Positions 22,681 through 25,838 of a stretch of DNA of 43,732 nucleotides are shown here, piece by piece. The stretch comes from Pyrinomonadaceae bacterium. GTDB taxonomy: Bacteria; Acidobacteriota; Blastocatellia; Pyrinomonadales; Pyrinomonadaceae. The first letter of the stretch is position 1. The number at the start of each line of letters is the position of its first letter. Location of the stretch: NCBI GenBank assembly GCA_030372865.1, contig JAUCQE010000172.1, forward strand, positions 1 to 43,732, given 5' to 3'. Made by a program: the position numbers and the translations under genes. The notes beneath the pieces were generated by a model. That model searched no databases. It was given only the letters and a program-made list of their open reading frames with translations, and was not told the DNA's origin.

Positions 22681-22710
22681 AAAAGGCAGCTTATTTCTAA
22701 GCTGCCTTTT
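22681..22710. terminator. bidirectional rho-independent terminator
   Basis: AAAAGGCAGCTTA (22681-22693), loop TTTC, TAAGCTGCCTTTT (22698-22710). It lies between convergent genes. Confidence 0.8.
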
Positions 22711-22737: not shown

Positions 22738-23217
22738 TCAAGCTTGAGCTTCAGCGGCTTGCGAAGCGAACATCTTGTCGAGTGCCGTCTGCAGGACGCC
22801 GATACCGAACTCGCCGGCGGCACGCGTCTTCAGCTTTCCTTCCGCGTCGAAAAGATAGTAAACCGGGACCCAGCCCTGCTCATTAAGAAACGCGTCTTTC
22901 AACTTGTGCAGGCTGTCGACGGCGCAGACCTCTTCGATCTTGTTATCGCCGATCGCCTGGTTTACGGTATCGAGGTCTGTGTCGGCCTCGTATCGCGGCA
23001 TATGGACCGCAATCGTCTCAAGACCCATTGCACCGTACTTCTTCTTTATCTCGTTCAACTGCGGCATCTTGTCTTTACAGATCCCGCATGACACCGCCCA
23101 GAAATGCACGAGCGTCGGTTTTCCTTTTATCCTAGCTTCTGTTTCCTCTTGCGAGCCGTTGAACCAGGTCGTTGCACCTTCGAGCGACGGCATCGCGTCT
23201 CCTATTCTCATTGGCAT
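22738..23217 (-). CDS. cytoplasmic thioredoxin-fold thiol:disulfide oxidoreductase (TlpA/ResA-like, CxxC)
   Basis: It has the redoxin motif LVHFWAVSCGICKDKMPQL (C-G-I-C) and no signal peptide. It starts 33 nt downstream of the GrdB-like gene on the same strand. Confidence 0.85.
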   Translation of the reverse strand: MPMRIGDAMPSLEGATTWFNGSQEETEARIKGKPTLVHFWAVSCGICKDKMPQLNEIKKKYGAMGLETIAVHMPRYEADTDLDTVNQAIGDNKIEEVCAVDSLHKLKDAFLNEQGWVPVYYLFDAEGKLKTRAAGEFGIGVLQTALDKMFASQAAEAQA

Positions 23218-23250
23218 GATGTTATAAATCCCCTTGTATTGATTGATCTT

Positions 23251-23985
23251 TTATTTCTTTCCTACGCTGACCGGTTCGTGATACTCACCATATTCCGGAT
23301 ATTCCATCGTGACCACTTCGCCGGGGCGAGTATTTTGGGTCAACTGATAAAGCGCATCTTTTACGATCTGCCGCTGCAGCGAACGCATTCCCGGTTTGCC
23401 CAGTGAATTTCCGATCTTAAACCCGTTCGGGTAGATCGCACGCGGCGGCCTCATCTGTGCTGAGACCTGCGGGCTGACCGTGACCAGCACCGTCGGAATT
23501 CCAAGCATCTCGATCTCTCTCTGTACCGCGACGACCGTGCGGTGGCAAACGTTCGGTCAGCCGCCGGTCAGCAGTACGATGTCCGCCCGCGAACCCTTGT
23601 CTATTTCCGACGCGATCGCCGGTGCCGTCTGGTCATACATGTCCTTGAGCCGCATTGTGTAGCCCATGAACCCGACGTGCTTTCTGGCAACGCCGCCGAT
23701 AAAGCCTTCCTCGACCAGATCGTTCAACACGTCGATCGGGAAGACGACATTGATATCCTGGTCGGCGTCCGCATGGTCGTAGTGATGGTGCGTCACCATC
23801 AGGTCGGCCGAAGAAACATCTTCGCCCATCACGCGATACGTTAGGTCGCCGAGCTCATCGGCCGTGTTGAATGGCTCTTGGTCTTTCCGGTGCACGCCTG
23901 CCGCAGTCACGATCGCGACGGTTGCATTCGAAAGATCGCCTTCGAACGGCGTGAATGGAACGCATTTTCTGGATAAGTTTGCCAT
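23251..23985 (-). CDS. short GrdB/PrdB-family (glycine/sarcosine/betaine/D-proline reductase selenoprotein B-like) protein with an in-frame TGA read as selenocysteine
   Basis: Track ORFs 23557-24000 and 23251-23508 are in the same frame, separated only by TGA at 23557-23559. The joined sequence reads ..RADIVLLTGG-U-PNVCHRTVVAVQREIEMLGIPTVLVT.., which resembles the Sec/Cys redox region plus the xxEIExxGIP segment of GrdB. Start is the ATG at 23985 (a TTG at 24000 is possible). Confidence 0.7.
23525..23543 (-). promoter_or_regulatory. candidate bacterial SECIS-like stem-loop for the GrdB-like gene
   Basis: In the mRNA, ACCGC-ACGGUCGUC-GCGGU starts 14 nt after the UGA. The 9-nt loop contains GGU about 21-23 nt from the UGA. 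The stem is only 5 bp. Confidence 0.3.
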
Positions 23986-24001
23986 TTCAAAACCATACAA
24001 A

Positions 24002-24059
24002 AAGGCCGCAGATCCGGTCGGAGCATCTTCCGCGATGTCCCTGACTTTTCTGCGGCCTT
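24002..24059 (-). terminator. long imperfect hairpin plus U-tract between the Sec-peroxiredoxin and the GrdB-like gene (terminator or attenuator)
   Basis: AAGGCCGCAG (24002-24011) pairs with CTGCGGCCTT (24050-24059), with inner helices (GUC-A-GG/CC-GAC and CAUC/GAUG). On the minus strand the stem is followed by TTTTG. Confidence 0.45.
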
Positions 24060-24078
24060 ATTCCAAAAACTGCTGTCG

Positions 24079-24543
24079 CTACAACTTTCTCAGAACATCG
24101 AACAATTCTTCGTTGTCCGGCTGGTCTGAGATGTCGTGGATATCGATATAGGCGATCTTGCCTTCCTTGTCCACGATGAAGAGGGCACGTTCGGTAATAC
24201 CGTCTGCCTCGCGCCATGCTCCGTAGCTTTTGGCGACCTCTCCTTTCGGGTGAAAATCGGCTAGCAGCGGATAATTGATACCGCCGAGCGATTTCGCCCA
24301 TGCGACGTGCGATGGAATACTGTCGACTGAAATGCCCAGAACCTGGGCATCATATCCTTCGAAGCGTTCTGTATCTGCTTCGTAGGACGGCATTTGCACC
24401 GTTCAAACGGGCGTCCAGTCGAGTGGGTAGAACGCGATGACCACGTTCTTCTTGCCCCGGAAATCCGAAAGCCGCACCTTGTTTTCTTTGTCCAGGTGGT
24501 TCGGCAGTTCGAAATCCGGAGCCTGATCTCCAATGTTTAACAT
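24079..24543 (-). CDS. AhpE/Bcp-like peroxiredoxin with an in-frame TGA (selenocysteine) at the peroxidatic Cys position
   Basis: Track ORFs 24403-24621 and 24079-24399 share a frame. The TGA at 24403-24405 gives ..[26 protein letters not shown].., placing it exactly where the Prx motif PxxxTxxC has the catalytic Cys. The ATG at 24543 is preceded by AGGAGA ([14 protein letters not shown]..). Confidence 0.75.
24355..24387 (-). promoter_or_regulatory. candidate bacterial SECIS stem-loop for the Sec-peroxiredoxin
   Basis: In the mRNA, UCCU-A-CGAAGC [AGAUACAGAAC] GCUUCG-A-AGGA forms 10 bp with one A/A mismatch. It starts at the 16th nt after the UGA. The 11-nt apical loop lies 27-37 nt from the UGA. 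Confidence 0.4.
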
Positions 24544-24558
24544 AGAGTCGTCTCCTAT

Positions 24559-24638
24559 TTGATTATCAAGAACTCTTTCGGCTAAAAAGCTGCCTACGAC
24601 TAGCTTACAACCGAATGCCACCGGGATTCAATTATCAA
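24559..24638 (-). promoter_or_regulatory. two GATAAT-containing Fur-box-like motifs upstream of the Sec-peroxiredoxin gene
   Basis: In gene orientation, TTGATAATCAA (24559-24569) is a 5-1-5 palindrome abutting the RBS. TTGATAATTG (24629-24638) lies just after the upstream terminator. Confidence 0.3.
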
Positions 24639-24645
24639 AATTCGA

Positions 24646-24667
24646 GGGGCGGACCTGCGTCCGCCCC
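24646..24667 (-). terminator. rho-independent terminator of the 2-Cys peroxiredoxin gene
   Basis: GGGGCGGAC (24646-24654), loop CTGC, GTCCGCCCC (24659-24667). On the minus strand the stem is followed by TCGAATTTT. Confidence 0.75.
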
Positions 24668-24683
24668 AAGCTTGTGAAACCGG

Positions 24684-25265
24684 TTATACCTTCAGGTTTT
24701 CCTGGCCCGGCTTCCAGTCTGCCGCACACAGGCCGCCGGTCTGCAGGCCCTGCAGCACGCGAAGCGTCTCATCGACCGAACGTCCGATGTTCAGGTCGTG
24801 AACGACCGAGTACTGAAGAACGCCTTCCGGATTGATGATGAAGAGGCCGCGAAGGGCGACGTTATTCTCTTCAACAAGGATGTTGTACGCACGTGCGAGC
24901 TTGCCGCCGATGTCCGAAGCGATCGGGTACTTAACGCCCTCGATGCCGTTCTTGTCCTGCGGCGTCTTGAGCCATGCACGGTGCGAGTGGACCGAGTCGG
25001 TCGAGATACCCAGAACTTCAGCGCCGACGCCCTGGAATTCTTCGAGGCGGTCCGAGAAGTGGATCAGCTCGGTCGGGCACACGAAAGTGAAGTCGAGCGG
25101 GTAGAACAAAAGAATCAACCATTTGCCCTTGTAATCAGAAAGCTTGACGTTCTCGGCAAGGGTTTCGATGTTCTTGGTCGAGGGCATGTTGAAATCCGGT
25201 GCGGGCTGGCCGACCTTGGCGAGAGTGACAGTGTTCTCTAATGCAGTACCAGTAGCTGTTGACAT
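24684..25265 (-). CDS. typical 2-Cys peroxiredoxin (AhpC/Prx1 subfamily)
   Basis: LILLFYPLDFTFVCPTE carries the peroxidatic Cys. The C-terminal GGLCAADWKPG carries the resolving Cys. The ATG at 25265 is preceded by AAGGAG. Confidence 0.92.
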   Translation of the reverse strand: MSTATGTALENTVTLAKVGQPAPDFNMPSTKNIETLAENVKLSDYKGKWLILLFYPLDFTFVCPTELIHFSDRLEEFQGVGAEVLGISTDSVHSHRAWLKTPQDKNGIEGVKYPIASDIGGKLARAYNILVEENNVALRGLFIINPEGVLQYSVVHDLNIGRSVDETLRVLQGLQTGGLCAADWKPGQENLKV

Positions 25266-25382: not shown

Positions 25383-25838
25383 TTAATTATTGCTTGCGCA
25401 ATCGGGGCAAAGTCCCCTTAACGTAAACTCCAAAGATTCCGGCTTGAACCGCGAATTCTTCGCGGCCTGCTTTACGAGGTCGGCCGGATGTTCCATTTCA
25501 ATATCGACCAGCTTGCCGCAAACTGTGCAGATCGCATGGTCGTGGCGGTGCGTCATCTTGTCGAAACGGCTCGCACCGTTGCCGAACTGGATCTCCGCGA
25601 TATGGCCCGCTTCTTTCAAATACCGCAGGCTGTTATAGACCGTCGCAAAGCTGATCGATGGCAGCATTTCTTTCGCCGCCGCAAAAACTTCGTTCGCTGT
25701 CAGGTGAGCGTCCGCCTCGCGGATCGTCCGCAGGACGACCTCACGCTGCCGCGTCAACCCCAATGCAGATATTGCTTTGTCTTCCACTTTCTTAATTCCT
25801 TGAGTGCCCGCAGGCGGACACAATTCTAAGTTGGCCAC
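25383..25838 (-). CDS. Fur-family metalloregulator (PerR-like by context)
   Basis: It has a wHTH segment (LTRQREVVLRTI..HLTANEVF..ISFATVYNSLRYL), a His cluster THRHDHAIC and two CxxC pairs (CTVCG, CPDC). GTG start. Confidence 0.88.
   Translation of the reverse strand: MANLELCPPAGTQGIKKVEDKAISALGLTRQREVVLRTIREADAHLTANEVFAAAKEMLPSISFATVYNSLRYLKEAGHIAEIQFGNGASRFDKMTHRHDHAICTVCGKLVDIEMEHPADLVKQAAKNSRFKPESLEFTLRGLCPDCASNN

Follow-up and report, generated by a model that had tools for sequence, protein, structure and literature searches.

The 43,732-nucleotide contig JAUCQE010000172.1 of a Pyrinomonadaceae bacterium (assembly GCA_030372865.1), hereafter the window, carries on its minus strand a gene for an AhpE-like peroxiredoxin that is interrupted by an in-frame TGA at the very codon where the catalytic cysteine is expected. 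Comparison with its relatives makes it very probable that this is a genuine selenoprotein gene, in which selenocysteine (Sec), specified by the UGA at residue 47, replaces the peroxidatic Cys. Sec at this position of a peroxiredoxin is an already established kind of selenoprotein (2001-2005) and is abundant in metagenomes. The interesting leads are instead the invariant pairing of this gene with a PrdB-like gene and the presence in its RNA of a SelB-type hairpin 60 nucleotides (nt) from the UGA, behind a spacer hairpin. All coordinates are positions in the window, not in the gene.

An in-frame UGA at the peroxidatic position

The initial annotation had joined two open reading frames (ORFs) into one gene of about 154 codons, and translation bears this out: the minus-strand ORFs 24403..24621 and 24079..24399 share one frame with only the TGA 24405..24403 between them, and the frame that opens with the ATG at 24543 and closes with the TAG comprises 154 codons, among which this TGA is the only stop, in the context gac tgg acg ccc gtt TGA acg gtg caa atg. 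The AGGAGA it had taken for a ribosome-binding site is likewise where it was said to be (Table 1). With the stop replaced by Cys, a check that it had recommended, the product matches the Pfam AhpC-TSA profile over its full length (PF00578, positions 1-124 of 124; 139.4 bits against a cut-off of 26, E = 7.5e-41) and also matches Pfam Redoxin. The active-site motif P40-L-D-W-T44-P-V-[UGA]47 is present, and the catalytic Arg119 is invariant in the homolog alignment. There is no Cys anywhere in the window protein, and a Cys at position 78 occurs in only 47 of 79 orthologs; there is hence no conserved resolving Cys, and the enzyme would be a "1-Sec" peroxiredoxin.

The proposed colinearity with the 1-Cys AhpE-type peroxiredoxins is apparent from a phmmer search of the PDB, in which residues 1-144 align with residues 1-141 of the 153-residue 1XXU chain (E = 1.3e-26) and the catalytic Cys of AhpE stands opposite the stop. 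Chains of the Prx1 type, although about 50 residues longer, score about as well (5ZTE, E = 1.3e-27), so that it is length and colinearity that support the assignment to the AhpE subfamily.

A scan of one genome per species (the GTDB species representatives) gave 80 loci at 73-88% identity, nearly all of them in metagenome-assembled genomes (MAGs) labelled Pyrinomonadaceae, Blastocatellia or Acidobacteriota; the genome is thus non-clostridial, as had been supposed. The peroxidatic column holds TGA in all 80 and never TAA or TAG. The 79 coding sequences analysed are all distinct, each with exactly one internal stop and without frameshifts; amino-acid identity is 79% on the 5' side of the stop and 80% on the 3' side, and synonymous differences outnumber non-synonymous ones by about 2:1 in both halves. 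The view that the gene is not decaying therefore stands, since the TGA is present in every sister species and purifying selection acts on both sides of it. A metagenome scan that started from a Cys form yielded 17 Cys forms and a further 21 TGA forms, which are more divergent.

A protein database search returned 7096 matches at E ≤ 1e-20, the best 120 clusters of which were classified. Among these best 120, 60 are fragments of 104-105 amino acids, 87-97% identical, that start at the Met four codons after the stop. A further 19 are full-length with Trp at the column and one has Gly (P0001-P0009, P0012-P0016, P0018, P0025, P0056, P0057, P0073 and P0092); these come from gene calls under code 4 or 25, to which callers switch on short metagenome contigs, and so again represent TGA. 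Another 35 are full-length, at most 73% identical, and carry Cys at exactly the UGA column, which together with the Cys of 1XXU agrees with the placing of the stop at the catalytic Cys of the PxxxTxxC motif. All matches at 75% identity or more within the same 120 are TGA forms. In the window itself TGA terminates 10 of the 34 long ORFs under the standard code, and just two in-frame TGAs look coding. The 80 TGA codons in 80 loci, the constraint on both halves, the 35 Cys homologs and the standard code together exclude a pseudogene, a recoded genome and a sequencing error, and on these sequence comparisons we read the TGA as a selenocysteine codon rather than as a sign of decay.

The clade also displays a systematic annotation artefact, the gene being either split into pieces of 46 and 104 amino acids or read through with Trp or Gly.

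RNA structure downstream of the UGA

The RNA of 79 sequences was aligned from the UGA to +110. Two hairpins, candidate parts of a SECIS (Sec insertion sequence) element, occupy this interval (Table 1), and one of them, H2, corresponds to alignment columns 56-63 paired with 67-74 (AUGCCCAG-GUN-CUGGGCAU); in the window it has a folding energy of -12.8 kcal/mol, its stem beginning 52 nt and its loop 60 nt after the UGA. The pairing holds in 99.5% of cells over 76 distinct sequences and collapses once the partner columns are slid against each other, while two of the pairs show compensatory double changes from G-C to A-U, in 15 and 22 distinct sequences. A profile of synonymous sites over the whole gene places its two most frozen degenerate codons in these hairpins: Asp65, in the 5' arm of H2, is GAT in 77 of 77 sequences (0 bits, against 0.64-1.0 bits for other Asp codons), and Arg60, in the 3' arm of H1, is CGC in 77 of 78 (0.10 bits, against 1.6-2.2 for other Arg codons). 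In the same profile Leu69 is limited to CTG or TTG and Gly70 to GGC or GGT.

All 100 Sec forms keep 7-8 of the 8 H2 pairs, whereas the 17 Cys forms keep 4-7 and never 8 (Fisher p about 1e-15, phylogeny ignored), and H2 energies average -11.2 and -10.4 kcal/mol over the two Sec sets and -3.5 over the Cys forms. Against shuffles of synonymous codons, z lies between about -2 and -3 in the Sec sets for H1 and H2 alike, as against about 0 for H2 and -0.8 for H1 in the Cys forms; this test is conservative because the codon pool comes mostly from Sec forms. Such comparative sequence data indicate that the downstream RNA is under selection.

The other hairpin, H1, reads CCU-A-CGAAGC / 11-nt loop / GCUUCG-A-AGG in the window, and close relatives share its GAAGC/GCUUC core and 11-nt loop. 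In other subclades and in all of the divergent Sec forms the same interval folds with other sequences and in other registers, as an irregular hairpin that is closed by an outermost pair between about 13-20 and about 50-54 and ends 1-4 nt 5' of H2. Thus sequence and register vary among clades, yet a hairpin domain is always present. The H1 loop starts 26 nt after the UGA and lacks the GG/GU pattern in many sequences.

The bacterial SECIS (bSECIS) consensus of the bSECISearch model allows 16-37 nt from the UGA to the apical loop and a loop of 3-9 nt (PMC13188914, section 5), and a subset of real bSECIS elements is known to fail it (PMC13188914). H2 is otherwise in line with this model: its 8-9 bp stem falls within the 4-16 bp range, its loop (GUN, or GGUNC) is small with G followed by U, and its energy lies below the limit of -7.5 kcal/mol for the minimum free energy (MFE). 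The apex of E. coli fdhF is GCA-GGUC-UGC, and the window H2 apex CCA-GGUUC-UGG resembles it; more generally, the H2 apex CCA-GGUNC-UGG is similar to the classical SelB-binding apex and to that of the SECIS of the PrdB-like gene described below. H2 may have originated in the codons for A-Q-V-L-G, which are self-complementary by nature (GCC CAG GUN CUG GGC).

Several observations count against Sec insertion guided by these hairpins. As to a bSECIS, the prediction of which the initial annotation had advised, the conserved H2 with its GGU apex has its loop at 60 nt, outside the consensus span. H1 has the right spacing but, in the window register, an 11-nt loop that exceeds the model's 3-9, so that neither hairpin fits the published model cleanly. 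An Rfam scan of 23200-24700 at E up to 10 turned up neither a SECIS nor any other relevant family. The compensatory changes in H2 partly follow clades and GC content (CAA/TTG versus CAG/CTG), which means fewer independent events than the cell counts suggest, and the Cys form L081 retains 7 of the 8 H2 pairs. Finally, ARAGORN detected no tRNA-Sec in the window or the 80 loci, and tblastn with E. coli SelA, SelB and SelD against the window and 1.3 Mb of related loci gave no match, although this is what would be expected of unlinked genes, the rest of the genome not being covered. Acidobacteria as such are among the recorded users of Sec (PMC1794560, Table 2); literature searches on Sec use in Blastocatellia and Pyrinomonadaceae returned nothing.

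A different candidate SECIS, an ACGGU/GCCGU hairpin at +3..+18 seen in a single-sequence fold, was rejected, as it is not conserved across orthologs.

The anatomy of the region suggests how a two-hairpin SECIS could operate. SelB carrying Sec-tRNA(Sec) would bind the GGU-apex hairpin H2, whose base lies 52 nt 3' of the UGA, and H1, which fills most of the gap between them, would when folded bring that base beside a point some 10-16 nt after the UGA, roughly the position that E. coli-type SECIS hairpins occupy.

The PrdB-like partner gene

The gene that follows the peroxiredoxin encodes a second predicted selenoprotein. It belongs to the GRDB family and is closest to the D-proline reductase subunit PrdB, although it remains below the curated cut-offs (TIGR04483, 194.5 bits against 300; TIGR01918, 61.4 against 65.45); the product around its sole in-frame TGA reads ADIVLLTGG*PNVCHRTVVAVQREIEM. 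The homology with PrdB and GrdB (TIGR04483, TIGR01918, PF07355) extends over about 220 residues and includes Sec at the Sec position of the family. The gene differs from both in falling below those cut-offs, in being paired with a peroxiredoxin and in its motif, U-P-N-V-C. Its SECIS, the stem of which begins 13 nt and the loop 18-20 nt after the UGA, fits the consensus bSECIS in every respect, whereas H2 differs by its 60-nt spacing and by the second hairpin domain in between. The element (ACCGC-A-C[GGUC]G-UN-GCGGU) is paired in 98.2% of cells over 73 sequences. RNAalifold proposed an alternative weak structure for the region, which we rejected in favor of the ACCGC/GCGGU hairpin found by hand, with which the data agree far better.

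The Sec codon of this gene is TGA in 71 and TGT in two of 73 loci, and TGC in L142, L082 and L083. The synonymous sites of the SECIS are frozen in the Sec forms but have changed in L003, L015, L082 and L083, which are Cys forms, so that a TGA accompanied by a GGUC hairpin that decays in Cys forms supplies independent evidence that the lineage decodes UGA as Sec. In L142 (GCA_036399835.1, 6001-6741) the PrdB-like gene has TGC beside an intact "fossil" hairpin, CACCGCACGGTCGTTGCGGTC, which points to an apparently very recent switch from Sec to Cys, while the adjacent peroxiredoxin retains its TGA and appears in the NCBI gene table as one 154-residue product.

These data also bear on what else might be made of the UGA in the peroxiredoxin. 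Cys insertion by tRNA-Sec-like systems has been proposed for some bacteria, and the UGA could likewise be recoded to Cys by a Cys-charged tRNA of this type with a SelB-like factor. Nothing specific points that way, though sequence alone cannot tell Sec from Cys at a SECIS-dependent UGA and interconversion of the two is frequent in the partner gene. We consider it highly improbable: selenoproteins are well established in both the peroxiredoxin (TxxU) and the PrdB family (PMC13188914), the apex of the PrdB-like SECIS is the classical GGUC, and to keep a UGA and a SECIS for Cys would be without obvious benefit when a mutation to TGC or TGT does the same.

Highly improbable as well is a stop at the UGA followed by a restart at the ATG four codons on (Met51), giving the 104-residue fragment alone or a split enzyme with the 46-residue piece. 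This ATG is invariant in the 79 close Sec forms, and the 104-residue fragment is what gene callers annotate; but such a fragment would be without the active-site Pro, Thr and peroxidatic residue, some divergent Sec forms have Ile at codon 51 (QIP in L105 and L114), so that the restart codon is not universal, the Cys-form homologs are single polypeptides, and the conserved H2 would be left unexplained. Even if the splitting of the gene in public assemblies suggests a pseudogene, an ordinary Cys-peroxiredoxin inactivated by a nonsense mutation, this can scarcely be entertained when 80 species share the TGA, when 79 distinct sequences have no further stop or frameshift and are under equal purifying selection on both sides, and when a conserved structured RNA follows the stop. 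As negligible is a reassignment of UGA to Trp or Gly, genome-wide or local (code 4/25), since the 19 Trp and one Gly clusters that would speak for it stem from the callers' choice of code on short contigs, TGA serves as a terminator in the window, and either residue at the catalytic column would kill a peroxiredoxin whose real homologs have Cys. Sec at residue 47 thus remains the preferred reading. The sequences themselves show that the UGA is conserved, that it pairs with Cys in homologs, that the RNA is constrained and that the two genes stay together; the actual insertion of selenium, the role of H1 and the identity of the reductant are inferred.

The pairing itself is without exception: the PrdB-like gene lies 3' of the peroxiredoxin in all 76 genome loci with enough downstream DNA, the other four of the 80 being on contigs that end within about 320 nt. 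Many divergent metagenome loci show it too, the genes being only about 25 nt apart in some, and it was recorded across L001-L080, L082, L083, L089-L113, L144, L146 and L147. In L082 and L083 both members of the pair are Cys forms. Moreover, an AhpE-like peroxiredoxin that is orthologous to that of the window and 47-54% identical to it adjoins each of three distant PrdB-like proteins of the Cys form (50-59% identity; one from a record named Ktedonobacteraceae). Cys/Cys versions of the pair occur in other phyla. PrdA, GrdE and GrdA domains were found neither in the long ORFs of the window nor in the called genes of L082, L083, L142, L144, L146 and L147.

A Cys-form peroxiredoxin also occurs in a Pyrinomonadaceae MAG (L081, GCA_046262295.1, 10001-10465), where H1 is intact, the PrdB-like partner is absent and a PFK gene comes next. 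In L142 it is the PrdB-like gene that the PFK gene follows; a recent conversion from Sec to Cys with loss of the partner may therefore explain L081.

Nothing relevant on a prx-prdB operon or a "PrdB-like" partner came out of the literature searches, and a 2026 review does not list the pair in its section on selenoprotein operons. Two marine surveys are nevertheless suggestive, for the Sargasso Sea data contain 43 peroxiredoxin and 42 proline reductase PrdB selenoprotein genes (PMC1088965, Table 1) and those of the Global Ocean Sampling (GOS) 253 and 235 (PMC2398784, Table 2); such near-equal counts are what a paired module would give. With 253 genes in the GOS data, Sec peroxiredoxins are not the rarities that the initial annotation took them for.

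Judged purely by gene context, the 1-Sec/1-Cys peroxiredoxin may have its dedicated reductant in the PrdB-like protein. Going by the mechanism established for peroxiredoxins, Thr44 and Arg119 would activate the selenolate, which would attack the peroxide and become a selenenic acid; an external partner would then reduce this acid, and the best candidate for that partner would be the PrdB-like selenoprotein with its U-x-x-x-C motif, and the CxxC thioredoxin-fold protein encoded after it may also participate. We offer tentatively, as possible rather than probable, the combined proposal of a two-selenoprotein peroxide module, in which the U-x-x-x-C centre would regenerate the peroxiredoxin and the orphan PrdB proteins of ocean and soil would be peroxiredoxin reductases, together with a two-hairpin SECIS. 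The PDB offers no structural clue to the function of the PrdB-like protein, as it contains neither a fold nor a sequence neighbor: phmmer with the family found no match among PDB chains, and a Foldseek search with the AF2 model of the homolog P0122 (pLDDT 90.9, pTM 0.89) found nothing significant (best E 0.02, TM 0.38).

Gene neighborhood and known relatives

On the minus strand the order of the cluster is PerR-like regulator, 2-Cys AhpC, Sec peroxiredoxin, PrdB-like gene, thioredoxin-fold gene and terminator (Table 1).

Table 1. Positions of the peroxiredoxin gene, its RNA elements and its neighbors in the window.
Feature	Position	Strand	Remarks
AhpE-like 1-Sec peroxiredoxin gene (predicted)	24079..24543	minus	154 codons + TAG stop (24081..24079); ATG at 24543
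In-frame TGA, predicted Sec codon (residue 47)	24403..24405	minus	peroxidatic position of P40-x-x-x-T44-x-x-U47
Shine-Dalgarno-like AGGAGA	24551..24556	minus	7 nt 5' of ATG 24543; read from sequence
H1 "spacer" hairpin domain	24356..24386	minus	20-50 nt from the U of the UGA; MFE folds
H2, probable SelB-binding SECIS hairpin	24331..24351	minus	G-AUGCCCAG-GUU-CUGGGCAU-U; 8-9 bp; GGU-type apex
PrdB-like (GRDB family) gene, second predicted selenoprotein	23251..23985	minus	244 codons; Pfam GRDB (PF07355), E = 6.9e-11
In-frame TGA of the PrdB-like gene	23557..23559	minus	LLTGG-U-PNVCH
Canonical bSECIS of the PrdB-like gene	23525..23543	minus	ACCGC-A-C[GGUC]G-UC-GCGGU
Fur-family PerR-like regulator	25383..25838	minus	palindrome in upstream region
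Perfect 7-1-7 palindrome TTAGAATAATTCTAA	25852-25866		upstream of the PerR-like gene
Ordinary 2-Cys peroxiredoxin (AhpC type)	24684..25265	minus	FVCPTE + C-terminal resolving Cys
GC-rich hairpin	24646-24667		3' of the 2-Cys peroxiredoxin gene
14-nt inverted repeat AAGGCCGCAGA...TCTGCGGCCTT, 36-nt loop, then T-run	23999-24062		between peroxiredoxin stop and PrdB-like start
Cytoplasmic thioredoxin-fold gene (WAVSCGIC)	22738..23217	minus	Pfam Redoxin/Thioredoxin; last gene before terminator
Strong intrinsic-terminator-like hairpin	22681..22710	minus	13 bp + T-run; ends the peroxiredoxin / PrdB-like / thioredoxin-like unit

The initial annotation rightly noted an ordinary Cys-type 2-Cys peroxiredoxin beside the Sec gene, and the best NCBIfam match of this neighbor is the PrxU model NF040737 (233 positions, 159 bits). 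Among the 80 genome loci it adjoins the Sec gene only in L001, L014 and L058, on the opposite strand in the last two, and linkage to AhpC or PerR is confined to a minority of the genome and metagenome loci. The palindrome TTAGAATAATTCTAA may be an autoregulatory Per box; with up to 3 mismatches no such site precedes ahpC or the Sec peroxiredoxin gene, so that PerR control of the latter is not shown. The inverted repeat between the paired genes may be an attenuator or a partial terminator. The thioredoxin-fold gene accompanies the cluster in some loci only, and its product is a possible member of a redox relay.

The window enzyme has its closest known counterparts in the peroxiredoxin (TxxU) selenoproteins, an established family in bacterial genomes and metagenomes (PMC1088965, PMC1794560, PMC2398784, PMC13188914). 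It shares with them the AhpC-TSA domain (pfam00578) and Sec at the peroxidatic position of T-x-x-U; in that family Cys homologs are widespread and Cys-to-Sec conversions documented. The sources for the family are Kryukov and Gladyshev 2004 and Zhang et al. 2005, 2006 and 2008. Whereas those surveys dealt mostly with marine reads and genomes of anaerobes, the clade of the window consists of soil and sludge Pyrinomonadaceae and Blastocatellia, a lineage described as aerobic; its SECIS hairpin lies outside the 16-37 nt span used in the TxxU studies, and the surveys make no mention of an operon with a PrdB-like selenoprotein.

PrxU of Eubacterium acidaminophilum, which similarly has Sec in place of the peroxidatic Cys, is the only Sec peroxiredoxin known to have been characterized biochemically (Söhling et al. 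2001, cited in PMC13188914). The 154-residue AhpE-like 1-Sec enzyme scores 81.4 bits against a cut-off of 270 for the PrxU equivalog (NF040737, 233 positions) and so falls outside it. What the initial annotation had overlooked is that the next gene is itself a predicted GrdB/PrdB-family selenoprotein with its own TGA, so that the link to grd genes, with which it had contrasted the window gene, is echoed here. The nearest structural relative, AhpE of M. tuberculosis (Rv2238c, PDB 1XXU/1XVW), has 153 residues against 154, is colinear with the window protein over residues 1-144 and aligns its catalytic Cys45 with the UGA. AhpE follows a 1-Cys mechanism that requires an external reductant, and it is reduced by mycoredoxin-1/mycothiol. 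In the window enzyme, by contrast, the catalytic residue would be Sec and the candidate reductant a PrdB-like selenoprotein.

Once the Sec gene is recognized as such, a whole family of abundant soil bacteria regains a functional antioxidant enzyme. The invariant pairing offers a testable function for the abundant, functionally unassigned PrdB-like selenoproteins; if the module proposed above is real, the orphan "proline reductase PrdB" selenoproteins would be peroxiredoxin reductases rather than amino-acid reductases. The SECIS geometry in turn suggests that some bacterial selenoproteins escape the current bSECIS models, whose window is 16-37 nt, and a spacer-hairpin SECIS with its stem-loop 60 nt from the UGA would, if true, be a class that consensus-based SECIS searches would miss.

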